IMG/VR virus record: IMGVR_UViG_2663763326_000008
Span: 1 to 50,429 of that record
DNA from: a virus
Lineage: Duplodnaviria; Heunggongvirae; Uroviricota; Caudoviricetes
DNA: 50,429 bases
Reading direction: 5' to 3' (one strand)
Positions 1,303 through 48,496 of this stretch are shown piece by piece. The position numbers and the translations under genes are program-made. A model generated the notes under the pieces. The model was not told the DNA's origin and ran no database searches. It worked only from the letters and a program-made list of their open reading frames with translations. Each line of letters starts with the position of its first letter. Position 1 is the first letter of the stretch.

Positions 1303-3381
1303 TTACTTATTAACCCAACCTGTAGCATTTGTGTTGCTTTCCTTTATATAAAGTACTGTATTTCCACCTCCATCAGAACGAGTGTAAATAGAACCAACTG
1401 GTGCTCCAACTCCGCTAGATGTTGGGTTGCCTTCTTGCCCAAATATCACAAGTGAGCTTTTATCTGTAGCTTGATTATTCTGTGTGGCTGATGTTCCAAA
1501 TGAAACATTCCCTATAAATGACACGCTCTTACAGGTTGATGTAGCAAATATACCAACTGATGGTTTATTAGTTGCAATGCCATCACGAATTTGATTTGAA
1601 CTAACAATTACATTTTCTGCACCAGAGTCAATTCGTATACCATTATGGTTGTTATCTGCGGTAGAAACCCCAGCTATAATGTTTGATTGAATAGTAACAT
1701 TTGAATATTTACCATTAATATGAATCCCATGCAGGGAAATATTTCTAAAGATGTTGCTAGAAATTACAACATCATGCGAAAAACCAGACCCTATAAATTC
1801 TTCTGCATTGGTTTCAGAAATCCATAAAGAACTTGATGTTCCTGAATCGTATTCATTATTAGAGATGATTGATTTGTTAATAAAATCACCTTTGAAAAAA
1901 CCGATTCCGCCTCTTGCTGTGTTTCCAGTGACAGTTAGTCCTGAAACCCATCTTGCGTCTACTGCATATGATTGAGACTCTGTAATAAACATGGAATTGT
2001 TGGATATTACGATATCTTCATGAAATGCATCTGATGTATCTGTATATGGATATGTAGGTGCAGCAAGAAGAATCGGGGATCTAACGCCTTCAAAATAATT
2101 GCCAACAATGCGCCCCCTCCTTGCCCCCTGTGGTTTTGATGATGATGGGAATGGGGTTACATGAACTCCTCGCGCGGTACTGTTATAGAAAGAGCATCCG
2201 CTAACCACCCAATCATACCAGTTGAAAACCCTTACCCCGGCAAAGAGCATTCCATCGAACCTGCAGTTTATGACCCTTATATTTTTGTCCTGATTCCCAT
2301 ATGAATTAGCATGGTTCCCAACCCCCGCCCCCCACGCCCCAAACCCAGTGGTGGTATTTTGTGGATTTGAACCAAAATAACAGTTATCAACAAGAACATT
2401 GATGTTTGGGTAATAATCGCCAAGAGATTCAATCCCCGGATCTAACTGTATCGCTTCTGAATAATTTCGGTTGGAAAGTGGTTTGAAGCCAAGAAACTTA
2501 CAGTCTCTTATAATCACCCCTTGCCCGTCAGCAATATCTACAGCATGAAAATCGACTACATCAAGAAATGTTACTCCAACAATAGAAAGATTTCTTGGTG
2601 AGGAGGCCGCAATGATGTCAAAAGGATCTGTAGGGTGGTCTTGTCCTCCTCCATCTAGTATTCCGCCTGTTATTTTAATGTTAGTGCCAGTATTAGGGTT
2701 TATTCTCAGCATAACGTCATTAGAAAAATTACGTTTAATGGTTACGCCATCAGTCATCTTTAGGTGAGTATTTGATTTTATTTGCAACTCAGAAAGCAAA
2801 GTATATATGCCTGGTAGTGAAAACTGTAGTGTACCTCCTCCAATGCTATATATTGCATCTAGCGCAAATTGCAGAGCTACTTTATTGTCAGCATTCGATG
2901 GATGAGCACCGAAGTCAAGAACATCAATGATTTGTTGGTTCTTTTGGTGTTGAGTTTGATTTGCTGCTCCGGGGAATGGTTGTTTCACCGACACTAATTC
3001 ATCCCCATCACCATCATCAAAGGATGCCAACCTCTTCTGAAACTGATCAGGGTCATACTTCAGCACATTAGGAAAATAAAACTGCTGCGCACCACATGCA
3101 TCATAAACAGCCATAGAATGGCCTTGCACAGTTACGAATTTGGCAATCTGTCCGTTATATACTGGATACCCAGCGGCATTGATGACGATTGGCTGTGCAA
3201 CAGGAACGTGAGAACCATCTTCGTTATCAACATAGACCTGAATCTGGTTATCAGGATTTACCGGGTCAGTGTCAATTTTACCGATATAAATTTTGCCATT
3301 AGCTACGGCTTTAAAAGAACGCGCCATAGTGAAGAGTTGCGAAGGCATGCTCACTACAACATTGGCTGTAATGTCTGTCAT
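1303..3381 (-). CDS. Tailspike protein (P22 gp9-like N-terminal head-binding domain fused to a different receptor-binding domain)
   Basis: 692 aa; N-terminus [11 protein letters not shown]...[22 protein letters not shown]...[13 protein letters not shown]...NVLKYDPDQ closely matches P22 gp9 head-binding domain from memory; remainder diverges. Confidence 0.85.
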
Positions 3382-3481
3382 TTAATTTGCTCCAGATACA
3401 AGGAATCGCCGCAGCATGGCTACGGTGAATTTTGGGCATAAAAAAACCCAGCCGAAGCTGGGTCGTTGCGTTGGTTATCTG

Positions 3482-21915: not shown

Positions 21916-21991
21916 TGGTGCTGGTTAACGGACTTGAACCGCTACCCATTCGCTTACAAGGCGACTGCTCTACCATTGGAGCTAAACCAGC
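21916..21991 (-). tRNA. tRNA, anticodon tentatively UGU (Thr), CCA encoded
   Basis: Hand-folded cloverleaf: acceptor GCTGGTT/AACCAGC, T-arm AGCGG-TTCAAGT-CCGTT, anticodon loop CTTGTAA; coordinates +/-2. Confidence 0.6.
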
Positions 21992-21996
21992 ATATT

Positions 21997-22071
21997 TGGC
22001 GGGACAGCGTGGACTCGAACCACGATAAGAAGGTTAACAGCCTTCCGTAATGACCTTTATACGACTGACCC
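21997..22071 (-). tRNA. tRNA, anticodon tentatively GUU (Asn), CCA encoded
   Basis: Hand-folded: T-arm CGTGG-TTCGAGT-CCACG, anticodon stem GAAGG/CCTTC with loop CTGTTAA; one acceptor mismatch; coordinates +/-2. Confidence 0.5.
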
Positions 22072-29757: not shown

Positions 29758-30051
29758 TTAAAATTCCATTTGTATTTGTTCAGAACGCTCGGTTGCCGCC
29801 GGGCGTTTTTTATTGGTGAGAATCGAAGCAACTTGTCGTGCCAATCGAGCCATGTCGTCGTCAACGACGCCCCATTCAAGAACAGCAAGCAGCATTGAGA
29901 ACTTTGGAATCCAGTCCCTCTTCCACCTGCTGATCTGCGACTTATCAACGCCCACAGCTTCCGCTGTCTTCTCAGTTCCAAGCATTGCGATTTTGTTAAG
30001 CAACGCACTCTCGATTCGTAGAGCCTCGTTGCGTTTGTTTGCACGAACCAT
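29758..30051 (-). CDS. cII: Transcriptional activator CII
   Basis: MVRANKRNEALRIESALLNKIAMLGTEKTAEAVGVDKSQISRWKRDWIPKFSMLLAVLEWGVVDD matches lambda CII from memory; start at internal Met of track ORF. Confidence 0.9.
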   Translation of the reverse strand: MVRANKRNEALRIESALLNKIAMLGTEKTAEAVGVDKSQISRWKRDWIPKFSMLLAVLEWGVVDDDMARLARQVASILTNKKRPAATERSEQIQMEF

Positions 30052-30129
30052 ATGTAAGTATTTCCTTAGATAACAATTGATTGAATGTATGCAAATAAAT
30101 GCATACACCATAAGTGTGGTTTAATTTGA

Positions 30130-30144
30130 TGCCCTTTTTCAGGG
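30130..30144 (-). promoter_or_regulatory. nutR boxB-like hairpin
   Basis: gccctgaaaaagggc on minus strand between cro and cII. Confidence 0.7.
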
Positions 30145-30169
30145 CTGGGATGTGTAAGAGCGGGGTTAT

Positions 30170-31184
<1,015 letters not shown>

Positions 31185-31429
31185 TAAAAGGTCGCACAGA
31201 AGTGCGGCCTTTTTTATTGGTAGTGATCCACACATTGTGCTAACGCATTAATTAGCATTAATATTTAGCTTAATCACAGAACAGCTAAAAATATTTTATC
31301 GATAAATATATACATATCAATGAGATAAATAAAAATGATGCATTTTGTAGCTAATTAATGATTTAGCTACCATTGCCCTGCTTATTTGAAATAAGCTATC
31401 ATCACCATAACCAAGCATATGGGGGATTT

Positions 31430-32365
31430 ATGGATACTAAAAAACGAGCTCAAAAAGCAGCAGCAATGTCAGCAATCGTTAGATCAGCTCCAAAGCCAAC
31501 TCACACAGGATTAATGGCGACAGGTGTTTCTTGTGCTGTTTTGCCTGATGGTCGCAGAGTGGTTTCAATGCAAGGTGCAAATGGATTGGCAGAAACATTC
31601 GGTGTATCTGTTGGCTCAAAAATGCCAAGATGGGTACCAAATGGGAAGCCAGGTCAATTACCATATGTTCTCCAAGCAAATGAGCTTCAGCCATATATTT
31701 CTGATGAACTAAGAGAAGCGCTAGCAGAACCAATTGTATATAAAAATACATCAGGTGCAGGTGTCGCTTATGGCATTGACGTTACTATGCTACCAGCGCT
31801 TTGCGAGGCATGGACAGATGCTGAGAGGGATGGAGCCCTACGACAAAAGCATCACTTGAATACAGCTGCAAAAGCCAAAGCGCTCTATAAAGCTCTAGCT
31901 AGAGTTGGCGCCGTTGCGCTCGTTGATGAAGCGACTGGATACCAAAAAGAACGAGAGCGCGATGAACTGGCAAAACTCCTTGAGCAATTCATCGCTAAAG
32001 AAATGCGACCATGGGTAAGCACATATCCGCCAGAATTCTTTGAGGAGTTATGTAGACTCAGAGGAGTCCCATTCAAAGCAAACATGCGGAGACCGCAATA
32101 CTTTGGTCATCTTGTGAATAACATAACTTATGACCGCATGGCACCAGAGCTAAGAAATGCGCTAAAGGAAGAAAGAGCAAAAGCAAAAAAGGCAGGTGCA
32201 AAAATGCATCAGTTTCTATCAGAGGGAACTGGATATGGTCTTCTTCAAAAGAGACTTACAGGGGTAACAACACTCATGCAAGCAAGCGATACTTATGAAG
32301 ATTTCATCCAATTGCTTGATAAGGTACACCCTCTACTAACCGTAGAAGATATTGACGCAGAATAA
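31430..32365 (+). CDS. Hypothetical 311-aa protein in the rexAB slot (moron)
   Basis: Start taken at MDTKKRAQ with ggggga RBS; preceded by very AT-rich 240-bp spacer; followed by hairpin terminator then OL/pL. Confidence 0.6.
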   Translation: MDTKKRAQKAAAMSAIVRSAPKPTHTGLMATGVSCAVLPDGRRVVSMQGANGLAETFGVSVGSKMPRWVPNGKPGQLPYVLQANELQPYISDELREALAEPIVYKNTSGAGVAYGIDVTMLPALCEAWTDAERDGALRQKHHLNTAAKAKALYKALARVGAVALVDEATGYQKERERDELAKLLEQFIAKEMRPWVSTYPPEFFEELCRLRGVPFKANMRRPQYFGHLVNNITYDRMAPELRNALKEERAKAKKAGAKMHQFLSEGTGYGLLQKRLTGVTTLMQASDTYEDFIQLLDKVHPLLTVEDIDAE

Positions 32366-32371
32366 CTTTAT

Positions 32372-32397
32372 TGCCCCGGCCTCAGCGCCGGGTTTTC
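32372..32397 (+). terminator. Putative rho-independent terminator after the moron
   Basis: cccggc-ctcagc-gccggg hairpin followed by ttttctttg. Confidence 0.45.
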
Positions 32398-32558
32398 TTT
32401 GCCTCACGATCCCATTCACCCAATAACACATAACCTATTGTATTTATTTGAAAATTAATAGATACAACTCACTATACATCGCAATTCAGATCTCTCGATC
32501 ACCTCCCAAGCCACACAACCCTGCAAAAAATAAATCCATATAAAAAACATACAGATAA

Positions 32559-32630
32559 CCATCTGCGGTGATAAATTATCTCTGGCGGTGTTGACATAAA
32601 TACCACTGGCGGTGATACTAAACACATCAG
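32559..32630 (+). promoter_or_regulatory. OL3-OL2-OL1 operators with pL promoter
   Basis: accatctgcggtgataaat / tatctctggcggtgttg / taccactggcggtgata with ttgaca -35 and gatact -10, lambda-type. Confidence 0.85.
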
Positions 32631-32674
32631 CAGGACGCACTGACCACCATGAAGGTGATGCTCTTAAAAATTAA

Positions 32675-32689
32675 GCCCTGAAGAAGGGC
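32675..32689 (+). promoter_or_regulatory. nutL boxB
   Basis: gccctgaagaagggc hairpin downstream of pL. Confidence 0.8.
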
Positions 32690-32861
32690 AGCATTCAAAG
32701 CAGAAGGCTTTGGGGTGTGGTGAAGGGTTCATGGATGGGAATATGTCGCACGTAAAGCGGCGAGGCCTGCGGAACTATTGCCGAATTGAAGTCGGCCGAA
32801 GCAGGTCGAAATGGGTCTCCCACCTACCACACCACCAAAGCTAACTGACAGGAGAATCCAG

Positions 32862-33188
32862 ATGGATGCACAAACACGCCGCCGCGAACGTCGCGCAGAG
32901 AAACAGGCTCAATGGAAAGCAGCAAATCCCCTGTTGGTTGGGGTAAGCGCAAAACCAGTTAACCGCCCTATTCTCTCGCTGAATCGCAAACCGAAATCAC
33001 GAGTAGAAAGCGCACTGAATCCGATAGACCTTACAGTGCTGGCTGAATACCACGAACAGATTGAAAGCAGCCTGCAACGTATTGAACGCAAGAATCAGCG
33101 CACATGGTACAGCAAGCCACGCAGTGAAATGGGGGTGACTTGTGTTGGTCGCCAGAAAATGAAATTAGGCAGCAAACCACTTATTTGA
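32862..33188 (+). CDS. N: Antiterminator N
   Basis: MDAQTRRRERRAEKQAQWKAANPLLVGVSAKPVNRPILSLNRKPKSRVESALNPIDLTVLAEYH matches lambda N from memory; C-terminus diverges slightly. Confidence 0.9.
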   Translation: MDAQTRRRERRAEKQAQWKAANPLLVGVSAKPVNRPILSLNRKPKSRVESALNPIDLTVLAEYHEQIESSLQRIERKNQRTWYSKPRSEMGVTCVGRQKMKLGSKPLI

Positions 33189-35667: not shown

Positions 35668-36133
35668 AATAGCCAATGAATACGCAAAATTGATGGATTC
35701 AGATTTAGAACCAGAGATGATTGCTGACACAATAGAAGGCATGGAAGGAGAATTTACCGATAAAATAGAGCAACTTCTTTCCGTCATTAAAAATGAATCT
35801 GGTTATGCTGAACGCCTCAAGGAAGAGGCAAAGTCACTTAATGAGCGAGCCGCAGTAATCCAAAATAAGATTGACAGCATCAAATCATATATAGCGTCAT
35901 CGCTTGAAATGGTTGGCAAGAAAAATATTCGAGCAGGTATTCACCAGGTAACAATCCGCAAACCGTCAGAAATTGTAGAAATAATCGACTCAAGCGCCCT
36001 TCCTCCTGAATACGTTGAGTTTGAAACGACAATTAAAGCCGACAAACTGGCAATCAAACACCAACTAAAAGCAGGAATAAATATCCCCGGCGCTCAACTC
36101 AAAGTTGGGAAACCTTCACTTCTTATCAAATAA
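35645..36133 (+). CDS. Hypothetical coiled-coil protein (recombination-module partner)
   Basis: 162 aa immediately after recT, overlapping its stop. Confidence 0.4.
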   Translation: MPVSKLYEIANEYAKLMDSDLEPEMIADTIEGMEGEFTDKIEQLLSVIKNESGYAERLKEEAKSLNERAAVIQNKIDSIKSYIASSLEMVGKKNIRAGIHQVTIRKPSEIVEIIDSSALPPEYVEFETTIKADKLAIKHQLKAGINIPGAQLKVGKPSLLIK

Positions 36134-36144
36134 CGGTATCGCCT

Positions 36145-36459
36145 ATGAAAAAGACTCCATGGGAGAAATGGGAAGTCGATTTCTTGCGCGAGGTAGCGGC
36201 GACAATGCCAGTTGAAGTTATCGCAGAAAAACTGGAAAGGACTGAAAAAGCAGTAATGGCGAAAGCAACAAGGATTGGCGCTGACATTGTTAGCCGACTT
36301 CGTGGAAGACGCTGGACAAGAGCCGAAGTATCACTTTTCGGTAAGTTCTCCGCAGAAGAAATAGCAATTGCAACCTGCCGCTCAATTTATTCAGTAAGAG
36401 CTATGCGATACAAGCTAAAAAAACTCGATGAAGAAAGAGCAGGCATACGAATAAATTAA
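36145..36459 (+). CDS. Hypothetical protein
   Basis: 104-aa ORF. Confidence 0.4.
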   Translation: MKKTPWEKWEVDFLREVAATMPVEVIAEKLERTEKAVMAKATRIGADIVSRLRGRRWTRAEVSLFGKFSAEEIAIATCRSIYSVRAMRYKLKKLDEERAGIRIN

Positions 36460-36475
36460 CATGGAATAATTAACA

Positions 36476-36757
36476 ATGAAGCTAAACATCGACCTCGGAA
36501 AATACGTTATTACCGGAACCAAACACGACCTGATTCTTAGCGAAAGAGGAATTATCAAAGAAGGCGAGAATGCAGGGAAAGAAACACTAAGTCGTATCGG
36601 TTATTACAGCAAGTTTGAGCATCTGGTTAAAGAGTTATGCAACCGTGAAATCCTGTTATCTCAGGCGCAGACGCTACAGGATATTCAGCAGCATATCGAG
36701 ACTTTAGGTGTATCACTTAGCATGGCTGTTGACCAGTTCATGGAGAGTAAATCATGA
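36476..36757 (+). CDS. Hypothetical protein
   Basis: 93-aa ORF. Confidence 0.4.
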
Positions 36758-36917
36758 GAGGACTTGCATACAATCCCGGCATTCTTCCGGCAGAAATGAT
36801 TATTCGCCAACGCGTAAAGCCAATGCCATCGAGAGAGGAATTGCTTAAGCGAAACTCGTTTCCATCAGTGAATCAGAACAAATATCTGAATGCGATGTGG
36901 CGTAAAGGAGGCAAACA

Positions 36918-37166
36918 GTGAGCAATTCAGCACGACTACAGCTTGGTTTTTCACCGCTATCAAAAACAATCGTGTTGGCAAAAATGCGTGACTTAGGGGA
37001 TGGAACAAAACGTCGTGTCGGCAATGATCGCGGTCGCGATGTAACCAACGAGGCCGCACAACTCGTTTGGCATCTAGTCATGGCTGAAGGCGGTGAAATT
37101 AATTGGGAGCTGGATGATGGTTCTCGCATGGTATTGAAGGCAGAAAAGCAGGAGCCTCCACAGTGA
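36918..37166 (+). CDS. Hypothetical protein (apparent GTG start)
   Basis: 82-aa ORF, no in-frame ATG at start. Confidence 0.3.
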
Positions 37167-37438
37167 ATATCGACACCACGATAACGATCGATACGGCCCT
37201 AAATACCGGACTGGCACTTCTCGGTTGGCTTTACATCATGTCCAGTACATGGCGATGGCTGGGTTCCATTTTCCTAAAACAGTGGAAAAAACGGCGCAAA
37301 CAGGAACTACGCCAGAAGGCATTAGAAGCGTTCTATGACGCATTTGAACTTAGCCGCATAGAACCAGGCACAACAGCCAGGATAGCGACAAAAGGCGACC
37401 TGATGATAGTGATGTTCAGACAGGAGAAAACAAAATGA
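37163..37438 (+). CDS. Hypothetical protein with one hydrophobic segment
   Basis: 91 aa; GLALLGWLYIMSS segment. Confidence 0.35.
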   Translation: MNIDTTITIDTALNTGLALLGWLYIMSSTWRWLGSIFLKQWKKRRKQELRQKALEAFYDAFELSRIEPGTTARIATKGDLMIVMFRQEKTK

Positions 37439-47867: not shown

Positions 47868-48496
47868 GCAACCACCTCCCCGGCTCTTTTCACAGGGATA
47901 CGGGCAGCAAAGCTCAGGATAAATTCAGTGGCAAGTTTAAGGCGTGCAGCATGCTCGCATTCTGCGATTACACGCACAGGGCGTGGACGGGCATCACGGT
48001 CTGTACGGCGGACAGCCAGAAAGACAAAGGTAAATTCAGGGTGAGATAAAGCAGGGACTGTAGCCATAATGGCAACCTCCTTCAGATAGCGGGTAACGCT
48101 ACCACCGGAGTTCCTACGCTCATGGGTGGTAGCCCAGACGGGGGTAGGAATACCGGCTCTGAAGGATACCGGCCAGCCCGAAAGCTGCCCCGCCTGGACT
48201 ACCATAATTCTGATGATGTGGCGTAAAAAATAAAAAAATACAATCAGCCACCACACCATAAATTTTAGGTGAGTCAAAGCTGCGACACAAAAAAACACGC
48301 CTAGCGCGTGTAGTATCGCCTTCAGATAACACGGGTTCCTACGCCCGGCTGCCGATTTTGCGGCAACCTTTAAACTATATCCCGCGCATTCCTGGTGAGG
48401 CAAGAAATTTATAACCGAAAACTGATCATTGCCTGGATTAATTAACGCTGGCATGCTTAAGCCTCTGCTTAAAAATAGTTCTTCATTTTTCCTGAT

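Follow-up and report, generated by a model that had tools for sequence, protein, structure and literature searches.

A P63C-family gene in an insulated cassette at the rexAB position of a lambda-type immunity region: a candidate single-gene exclusion factor with clade-specific box arrays

The DNA analysed here (the window) is the whole 50,429-nucleotide (nt) stretch of the Caudoviricetes record IMGVR_UViG_2663763326_000008, and its plus strand runs in the leftward direction of bacteriophage lambda. Its immunity region is of the lambda type, and between the repressor gene cI and the leftward operators, where lambda carries rexA and rexB, lies a single gene of the P63C family. Window positions 30011-31185 match lambda 38400-37226 without gaps at 97.7% identity, and positions 32375-33163 match lambda 35824-35062 at 86.5% identity. 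The 1189 bp between these blocks (31186-32374) exactly replace lambda 35825-37225, the stretch made up of rexA, rexB and the DNA between them. Lambda homology is lost one base past the cI stop codon and regained one base past the rexB stop codon, so that both boundaries (31185/31186 and 32374/32375) are sharp. The insert contains a single long open reading frame (ORF), with its ATG at 31430 and a stop codon ending at 32365, which encodes 311 amino acids (aa). The elements of the cassette and of its right-hand joint are as follows.

31186..31219, plus strand: intrinsic-terminator-like hairpin, the first element of the insert, between cI and the P63C gene; AAAAGGTCGCAC-AGAA-GTGCGGCCTTTT, then a T-run
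31266..31287, no strand: distal pair of degenerate boxes, TAGCTT-N10-CAGCTA, with starts 16 bp apart
31347..31370, no strand: proximal operator-like inverted repeat GTAGCTAA-N8-TTAGCTAC, with perfect 8-nt arms, abutting the -35 element
31373..31402, plus strand: predicted sigma-70 promoter of the P63C gene from a promoter scan; -35 TTGCCC (31373-31378), 18-nt spacer, -10 TATCAT (31397-31402)
31393..31398: half box AAGCTA, overlapping the -10 element
31411..31425, plus strand: CCAAGCAT, then the Shine-Dalgarno sequence GGGGG; the upstream alignment described below has CCAA and GG without variation
31430..32365, plus strand: P63C-family gene, 311 aa, Pfam PF10546 and PHROG 2384
32375..32400, plus strand: Timm terminator, belonging to the lambda backbone and forming the right-hand joint of the cassette; homology resumes at 32375, equivalent to lambda 35824

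The hairpin that follows cI (31186-31213) has a 12-bp stem and a folding free energy of -20.1 kcal/mol (z = -6.06), and none of 200 shuffled sequences folded equally well. It is kept in the cassettes of Enterobacter, Cedecea, Symbiopectobacterium and Photorhabdus. On the other side of the gene, a hairpin at 32375-32392 with a free energy of -12.4 kcal/mol is followed by a T-run, and its equivalent is labelled Timm in the records of phages HK542 and mEp332. An earlier reading of the window, made from the sequence only, had placed a hairpin terminator 3′ of the ORF; the hairpin and its T-run are indeed there, but they are lambda's own Timm rather than a feature of the insert. Several other cassettes also have a Timm-like hairpin 3′ of the gene, including one that lies outside an immunity region (locus L014), and unrelated hairpins are found in the remaining cassettes. 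The sequence-only reading was right about the AT-rich spacer before the ORF: the region 31214-31429 has 29% G+C, compared with 44% in the ORF and 46.6% in the whole window. Searches of the spacer against Rfam gave sub-threshold matches only, on the terminator hairpins. The insert thus has the marks of a moron, namely a sharp insertion between otherwise contiguous elements, a predicted promoter of its own with flanking terminators, and an atypical base composition. We use the term for lambdoid phages in the sense in which Juhala et al. reportedly used it in 2000. We are confident, on the sequence comparisons described here, that a one-gene accessory cassette with a conserved predicted promoter of its own, insulated by terminators, has taken the place of rexAB.

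The protein matches the Pfam P63C domain (PF10546) at residues 183-269 (E = 6.6e-23; 81.6 bits against a cutoff of 26.1) and matches PHROG 2384, a group annotated as of "unknown function", over almost its full length (residues 4-306, E = 6.2e-106). Its RefSeq entry, WP_021552633.1, has the product label "P63C domain-containing protein". P63C was the only domain matched in a Pfam scan at E ≤ 1, and NCBIfam returned nothing but a meaningless 10-bit match. BLASTP comparison with RexA (PF15969) and RexB (PF15968) gave E values of 8 and 16, that is, no similarity. The earlier claim that a single ORF unrelated to RexA and RexB fills the slot is therefore well founded, and neither the homology searches nor the comparison with rexA and rexB brought any RexA/RexB relationship to the surface. 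The protein is predicted to be soluble and basic (pI 8.9), without a transmembrane segment (maximum 19-residue Kyte-Doolittle value 1.08), and it has the architecture seen throughout the family: an N-terminal beta-rich domain, the motif VDEATGYQxxR and a helical C-terminal region. Conservation is strongest in this motif (residues 165-175) and at V37, L38, R43 and S46 in the first beta-hairpin; D166, E167, A168, T169, G170, Q172 and R175 are invariant in an alignment of 43 sequences. Comparison with homologues of 62-81% identity indicated purifying selection, with a proportion of nonsynonymous differences (pN) of about 0.13-0.23 against a proportion of synonymous differences (pS) of about 0.78, which is saturated, and a pN/pS ratio of about 0.17. 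These features make us confident that the gene encodes a functional P63C-family member. In the 2002 work of Iyer, Koonin and Aravind, P63C was reportedly placed at first among the shuffled domains found in viral transcription regulators.

The insert, whose DNA is 100% identical to that in two complete Escherichia coli ST131 genomes, is uncommon: of 5426 complete E. coli genomes, only 2 have it. In the phage collection, no record was similar at the nucleotide level except for an 86-nt stretch of Timm. The identical protein is nevertheless present in some 950 indexed blocks of the assembly collection. At E ≤ 1e-3 the family comprises 5434 representative clusters; the 1336 clusters found at E ≤ 1e-30 are nearly all stand-alone proteins, mostly of 300-370 aa. 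At least 576 species genomes have a member at about 40% identity, and their hosts belong to the Proteobacteria, Actinobacteria, Chlamydiae, Planctomycetes, Verrucomicrobia, Acidobacteria and other phyla.

How might the expression of this gene be controlled? We aligned the upstream regions of eight cassettes from four genera (E. coli, Enterobacter, Symbiopectobacterium and Providencia), the proteins of which are 62-100% identical to that of the window. Column identity averages 72%, and much of the spacer varies between genera. The TTAGCTA columns, several TAGCTA motifs and the ribosome-binding site are invariant, as are the T of the -35 element and the T, A and final T of the -10 element; at the same place, homologues have TTGACA or TTGACG combined with TATATT or TAGAAT. 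In its relaxed form, the box-pair pattern has just two occurrences in the 50 kb of the window (31266 and 31348), and exact distal TAGCTA pairs are present in homologous cassettes about 180-195 nt 5′ of the start codon. The cassettes of Cedecea, Morganella and Photorhabdus (59-89% protein identity) repeat this layout regardless of the insertion site: TAGCTAA-N8-TTAGCTA abuts the -35 element, a half box lies on the -10 element, and a distal pair follows some 100-130 bp further upstream, on the far side of very AT-rich DNA. The positions of the boxes relative to the -35 and -10 elements are fixed in E. coli, Enterobacter, Cedecea, Morganella, Symbiopectobacterium, Providencia and Photorhabdus. 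In the upstream regions of seven lineages, TAGCTA is found 22 times, compared with 0.48 expected, and none of 5000 shuffles equalled this number. Its plain count within the window (12 against 7.6 expected) is not significant and would be insufficient alone; the signal therefore lies in the position of the boxes, their pairing and their conservation across genera. Judged by these comparisons, conservation marks the AT-rich spacer as a control region. In addition, CCAAGCAT (31411-31418) is one mismatch from GCAAGCAT, a box found throughout the family, and looks like a remnant of it; distant homologues have a GCAAGCAT(G/A) box directly 5′ of the ribosome-binding site.

Control of the cassette by CI was considered and rejected, in that no 17-mer resembling a CI operator is found upstream, the best having six mismatches. 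Because a terminator-like hairpin splits cI from the gene, and because the gene has its own conserved predicted promoter, expression is probably independent of pRM. The sequence-only reading had proposed expression in the lysogen "like rexAB", which implies co-transcription from pRM; it had overlooked the strong terminator-like hairpin at 31186-31213, and this part of it, in that form, is not supported.

Boxes of other types were found in front of other members of the family. Of 76 loci drawn from diverse species, 49 have the 7-mer GCAAGCA/TGCTTGC in the interval from -250 to +120 relative to the ORF start; it was found in 7 of 76 control segments of the same length, and chance would give about 3. 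These boxes are arrayed in groups of three to five with alternating orientation, a typical array being TGCTTGC-N12-GCAAGCA-TA-TGCTTGC-N11-GCAAGCA followed by the ribosome-binding site. For example, the Salmonella phage SEN34 and the Pseudomonas phage Lodos both have GCAAGCA-N13-TGCTTGC. An independent set of 68 distinct viral-contig loci replicated this result and added a third dialect, TGCACGY/RCGTGCA, which is also found 5′ of the homologue in phage 933W. Other P63C clades, from many phyla, have different boxes, TGCAAGCA and TGCACGYGCA, and the TAGCTA dialect is restricted to the clade of the window protein (59-100% identity). Box type tracks how closely the proteins are related: in 87 of 94 cases the type was shared with the nearest neighbour of known box type below 85% identity, a result equalled by none of 2000 permutations. 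A shared host factor is unlikely to explain this because the hosts span many phyla, and the simplest reading of the arrays would be that the P63C proteins themselves bind the boxes.

The predicted structure offers a lead in the same direction. In the full-length AlphaFold2 model, the mean predicted local distance difference test (pLDDT) score is 76; confidence is good at residues 20-170 and poor at residues 183-197 and over much of the Pfam P63C region. When the N-terminal 136 residues were modelled separately, the score was 84 and the layout was beta-beta-beta-alpha...alpha-beta-beta-alpha. Fold matches to this model had modest scores and were mostly to winged-helix-type DNA-binding folds. 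A sequence search of the PDB gave no relative of solved structure, and a Foldseek search of the full protein against the PDB gave no match with E < 1. The model of the N-terminal domain thus weakly resembles winged-helix, DACH or APSES-like DNA-binding folds, a lead rather than proof.

We next consider where the cassette and its relatives are found. In all eight places examined, a gene for the identical protein lies directly 3′ of a cI-type repressor gene, and in one of them (L009) the repressor, Cro and N are non-lambda. The 81% homologue follows three kinds of cI-type repressor in seven of eight places and a tailspike gene in the eighth (L014), and the 89% homologue of Cedecea lies directly after a cI-type repressor. 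At least four kinds of cI-type repressor, the lambda type of the window and three others, thus precede close homologues. On Morganella contigs (L122-L125, at about 2019-3442), the gene for the 84% homologue is directly 3′ of a repressor gene of the Arc/Mnt family (mnt-like). This region has arc with a Bro-N or ORF6N antirepressor, as in immI, and the cassette occupies the position that sieA has in P22. The 59% homologue of Photorhabdus is found between Q and the holin gene. Among sequenced phages, whose homologues have 30-40% identity, the gene lies immediately after cI in the P22-like phage SPN9CC and in Erwinia phage Midgardsormr38, between the repressor and the integrase in Streptococcus phage Javan515, and next to the integrase in Gordonia phage Petra, Burkholderia phage DC1 and Pseudomonas phage Lodos; in SEN34 it is an antisense moron in the nin region.

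At L009:5700-5760 and L014:3700-3745, the cassette is accompanied by a remnant of the lambda-type cI 3′ end (...CCTGAAGAGACGTTTGGATGA), there placed behind a different repressor gene and the tailspike gene, respectively; as judged from its sequence, this remnant is the footprint of a recombination joint. Because this remnant and Timm-like hairpins accompany cassettes elsewhere, we deduced that the cassette moves by recombination at two conserved joints.

Other neighbours recur beside members of the family. At some loci (L038, L051, L060, L066, L072, L074, L094, L096, L099 and L105 among them), a DDE transposase-like gene with weak Pfam matches to IS1, IS240 or HTH_38 lies about 1 kb upstream on the opposite strand. 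Its 5′ end has the conserved sequence gaacttttatgcttagYgtcaagca, which resembles the P63C boxes. This pairing may represent a two-gene module or a target-site preference. In about nine unrelated genomes (L038, L048, L050, L051, L072, L074, L082, L101 and L104), a small ORF (71-117 aa) runs on the opposite strand immediately downstream, with an overlap of exactly 4 nt at the P63C stop codon; Pfam searches with three of these ORFs gave no significant match, and they may represent a conserved partner of the P63C gene or result from crude ORF calling. The Enterobacter and Cedecea prophages (L015-L021 and L118-L121) have a conserved ORF of 65-69 aa before N, convergent to the P63C gene and 30-40 nt past its stop codon; it has no Pfam match and is absent from the window.

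The lambda-type backbone around the slot contains the following features.

30170..30370, minus strand: cro; Cro identical to lambda Cro at 64 of 66 aa, within the 97.7%-identical block
30397..30460, no strand: OR1, OR2 and OR3 with pR and pRM; OR2 and OR3 exact lambda matches, OR1 with one mismatch
30471..31184, plus strand: cI repressor gene of the lambda immunity type; 235 of 237 aa identical to lambda cI; lambda homology ends at 31185
32557..32619, plus strand: OL3, OL2 and OL1 with pL; all three operators exact lambda matches
32674..32690, plus strand: nutL boxB, an exact lambda match
32862..33188, plus strand: gene for antiterminator N; lambda N-like translation, named N in the identical E. 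coli ST131 record

The description of cI, OR, cro, OL/pL, nutL and N as lambda-like in the sequence-only reading is borne out by these matches. The promoter scan placed a pR-like promoter at 30423-30395 on the minus strand and pL, as TTGACA-17-GATACT, at 32591-32619. OR1 (30397-30413) differs by one base from that of lambda (TATCACCGCTAGAGGTA compared with ...GCCAGAGGTA), the other five operators being exact, and this change may slightly shift the affinity of CI and Cro at that site. The prophage also encodes its own O-like and DnaB-like replication genes. Elsewhere in the window, side-by-side Rfam matches above the gathering threshold were obtained on the minus strand at 48122-48367 for the C4 antisense RNA (81 bits) and the Hfq-binding small RNA isrK (69 bits); away from the cassette, this pair looks like an antirepressor control module of the P1/P7 or Gifsy type. 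Two neighbouring transfer RNA genes are present within the prophage at 21919-22071 on the minus strand (Rfam, 61.5 and 55.3 bits).

What, then, could the cassette do? We propose that 31186-32374 is a mobile one-gene cassette, a moron, that would have been swapped in for rexA-rexB by recombination at the 3′ end of cI and at Timm. Its order would be a strong terminator ending the cI transcript, an AT-rich control region of about 215 bp with its own sigma-70 promoter and box pairs, the P63C gene and then Timm; in the control region, two operator-like box pairs of the form TAGCTAA-N8-TTAGCTA and a half box on the -10 element may serve as binding sites. The protein would be a sequence-specific DNA binder, composed of an N-terminal domain of the winged-helix, DACH or APSES-like kind, the VDEATGYQxxR motif and the helical P63C C-terminal region. 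By binding its own boxes it would regulate its own synthesis, and it would be made in the lysogen independently of pRM. We consider it probable, though by a modest degree, that the P63C protein binds the box arrays and autoregulates, with expression free of read-through from pRM. The role of the protein may be that of a single-protein superinfection-exclusion or abortive-infection factor acting on incoming phage DNA or its replication, in the manner of BstA of the Salmonella prophage BTP1, for which abortive-infection activity has been demonstrated (Owen et al. 2021, PMC8585504). The clade-specific boxes could then serve as an operator, as a self-recognition element, or as both. A part in phage-phage conflict, whether exclusion or abortive infection, is suggested by the slots that the gene occupies (those of rexAB, bstA and sieA), by its presence in lysogeny modules and by its moron layout; we regard it as plausible, though somewhat less likely than not. 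The proposal as a whole, an insulated, DNA-binding and autoregulated accessory gene whose exclusion or abortive-infection role is suggested by its position, is one that we favour tentatively, at a little below even confidence.

We further speculate that P63C represents a large and overlooked family of single-gene, DNA-guided conflict factors that belong to prophages and further mobile elements, in which each clade would recognise its own dialect of short palindromic boxes (TAGCTA, TGCAAGCA or TGCACGYGCA). The 5′ array would mark self and would shut off or titrate the protein, as the element aba does for BstA; the protein would bind invading phage DNA without boxes and block its transcription or replication. 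We hold this extension to be unlikely, if attractive. If the conflict-factor reading is true, the cassette would truly stand in for rexAB in function, with an exclusion system of a new mechanistic kind.

A number of observations weigh against an exclusion factor that binds its own boxes. We infer binding by the protein from sequence patterns, and the box binder may be another factor; the co-variation of proteins and boxes could partly reflect shared descent alone. When the family profiles of P63C and BstA were compared by hhalign, 136 collinear columns were aligned with E = 0.0016 and a probability of 16%, which is below conventional significance and confined to the N-terminal half; the match ends at about residue 187 of the P63C protein and residue 166 of BstA, and a comparison against a single BstA sequence gave a probability of 2.4%. 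None of the defence models of PADLOC-DB v2.0.0 matched the protein at E ≤ 1, no catalytic, toxic or effector domain was recognisable in it, and literature searches for P63C, PF10546, the 933W homologue L0095 and the slot hot spots found no functional study of the family. The homologue of 933W-type phages has its place in the nin region, where it is co-oriented with the early lytic genes and lytic expression is expected. Finally, the neighbours in 73 diverse genomes are a mixed set, the upstream one being an S24 repressor in 2 and a divergent DDE transposase-like gene (about 300 aa, weakly IS1-like) in about 11-15; many family members beside such DDE-like genes are found outside prophages. Because 2 of 73 genomes have S24 neighbours and about 11 have DDE-like ones, the P63C family overall is not tied to lysogeny modules; we rejected the idea that the whole family is linked to repressor genes, a link that holds for the enterobacterial clade and several phage groups.

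Could the protein instead be a regulator? Rather than a defence effector, it might be a regulator of the antirepressor or Bro-KilA type that tunes its own prophage, the host or rivals through DNA or through phage repressors, for example by controlling neighbouring antirepressor genes or by interfering with the immunity of a rival. Homologues often adjoin Bro-N, ANT, ORF6N, P22_AR, Roi or Arc/Mnt genes, the gene has operator-like boxes at its own promoter, and its N-terminal domain is modelled with a fold of the DNA-binding type. However, adjacency to antirepressor genes may merely reflect common hot spots for accessory genes, and no such gene adjoins the cassette in the window. The box pair is found nowhere else in the 50 kb, so that no second target is visible, and a regulatory role leaves unexplained why the gene recurs 3′ of cI and mnt, positions that known exclusion genes occupy. 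We therefore find this explanation rather unlikely, while taking it seriously. A further possibility is that the protein serves a mobile element, either as an accessory factor of transposition or recombination or as a Rep-like initiator with iteron-like boxes, the rexAB slot being a case of hitch-hiking. The divergent DDE-like neighbours, with boxes that reach the start of the DDE-like gene, the likeness of repeated boxes and an AT-rich stretch to plasmid origins, and the evident mobility of the cassette between sites would all agree with such a function. In the window and in every enterobacterial context read, though, no DDE gene accompanies the cassette, and its movement in the enterobacteria is explained by the homologous joints, the cI 3′ remnant and the Timm-like hairpin. 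The boxes are inverted repeats that overlap a promoter, as operators do, rather than direct iterons, and the prophage already has O-like and DnaB-like replication genes. A mobile-element function of this kind seems to us distinctly improbable.

The remaining two explanations fare worse. A strict analogue of the Rex system would comprise a sensor and a depolarising membrane channel co-transcribed with cI. The genomic slot is what the cassette shares with such a system; against it, there is a single gene, with neither similarity to RexA or RexB nor a hydrophobic segment, and a terminator stands between it and cI. This explanation is refuted at the levels of sequence and architecture, and we give it very little credence. 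It might also be supposed that the ORF is decaying or meaningless, a product of illegitimate recombination, and the rarity of the insert among complete E. coli genomes is what one would then expect. The strong purifying selection (pN 0.13 against pS 0.78), the wide occurrence of the identical protein, the breadth of the family across many phyla, and the conservation of the promoter, the ribosome-binding site and the terminators refute this supposition, which we regard as scarcely credible.

Abortive-infection genes, namely rexAB and bstA, are already proven occupants of the cI-to-pL slot in lambdoid prophages, and a third, unrelated occupant from a family of more than 5000 representative clusters of no assigned function is a cheap and well-defined candidate for a new single-gene defence. 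As far as we could find, the box arrays have not been described before; they are conserved from the Proteobacteria to the Actinobacteria, Chlamydiae and Planctomycetes, and their dialect switches with the clade. They provide the family with a testable activity, sequence-specific DNA binding at defined sites, and with a handle on the discrimination of self from non-self. Even if the protein is merely an autoregulated regulator, the cassette is a clean case of mosaic joints, the cI 3′ end and Timm, that shuttle insulated cassettes; the sites linked by such joints are immunity regions, immI regions and late-operon sites.

The finding is of a known kind, an accessory or candidate-defence cassette in the cI-pL hot spot; what is new is a protein family without a listed defence role, and the box arrays. 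The variability of this slot in phages of lambda immunity is already documented: HK542, HK244 and mEp332 (GenBank EF120456-8, Degnan et al. 2007) combine lambda cI, OR and OL with genes other than rex in the stretch from cI to Timm. Their slot genes encode other proteins, without a P63C domain, and in HK542 and mEp332 these genes start 22-50 nt past cI with no terminator between. The P63C gene shares with rexA and rexB the slot between cI and Timm and the orientation. However, Rex consists of two genes, including one for a membrane protein, that are co-transcribed from pRM, whereas the window has a gene for one predicted soluble protein, with its own predicted promoter, behind a terminator. 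The layout resembles that of P22, in which mnt, a terminator, PsieA and sieA likewise follow the order of repressor, terminator, separate promoter and accessory gene. SieA itself is a small exclusion protein of the inner membrane and has no relation to the P63C protein in its sequence or its kind.

Of the known systems compared, BstA is the closest functional analogue. The paper on BstA describes the cI-N region as a known mosaic hot spot and the gene as syntenic with rexAB (PMC8585504). Both BstA and the P63C protein of the window are single proteins, about 300 aa long, whose genes lie directly 3′ of a prophage repressor gene in the cI-N slot. The weak collinear profile match covers about 140 N-terminal residues, where BstA reportedly has its putative, KilA-N-like DNA-binding domain, and both genes have a variant-specific DNA element at the 5′ end, aba in the case of BstA and the clade-specific box arrays in that of P63C. 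In contrast, the C-terminal halves are unrelated, PF26567 being found in BstA homologues only and PF10546 in P63C homologues only according to precomputed Pfam assignments. Membership in the BstA family was considered and rejected, in that the PF26567 C-terminal domain is not matched; because the C-terminal halves do not match and belong to different Pfam families, the window protein is not a BstA family member. The bstA gene begins 88 nt past cI and is presumed to use the cI promoter, whereas a terminator and a separate predicted promoter intervene before the P63C gene. Furthermore, aba consists of direct CCCGCC repeats that overlap the start codon, whereas the P63C boxes are inverted repeats around the promoter, and the activity of BstA is demonstrated, whereas a defence role of P63C is suggested by position. 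With these differences in mind, we suggest that P63C and BstA may share an ancestral N-terminal domain and a similar logic.

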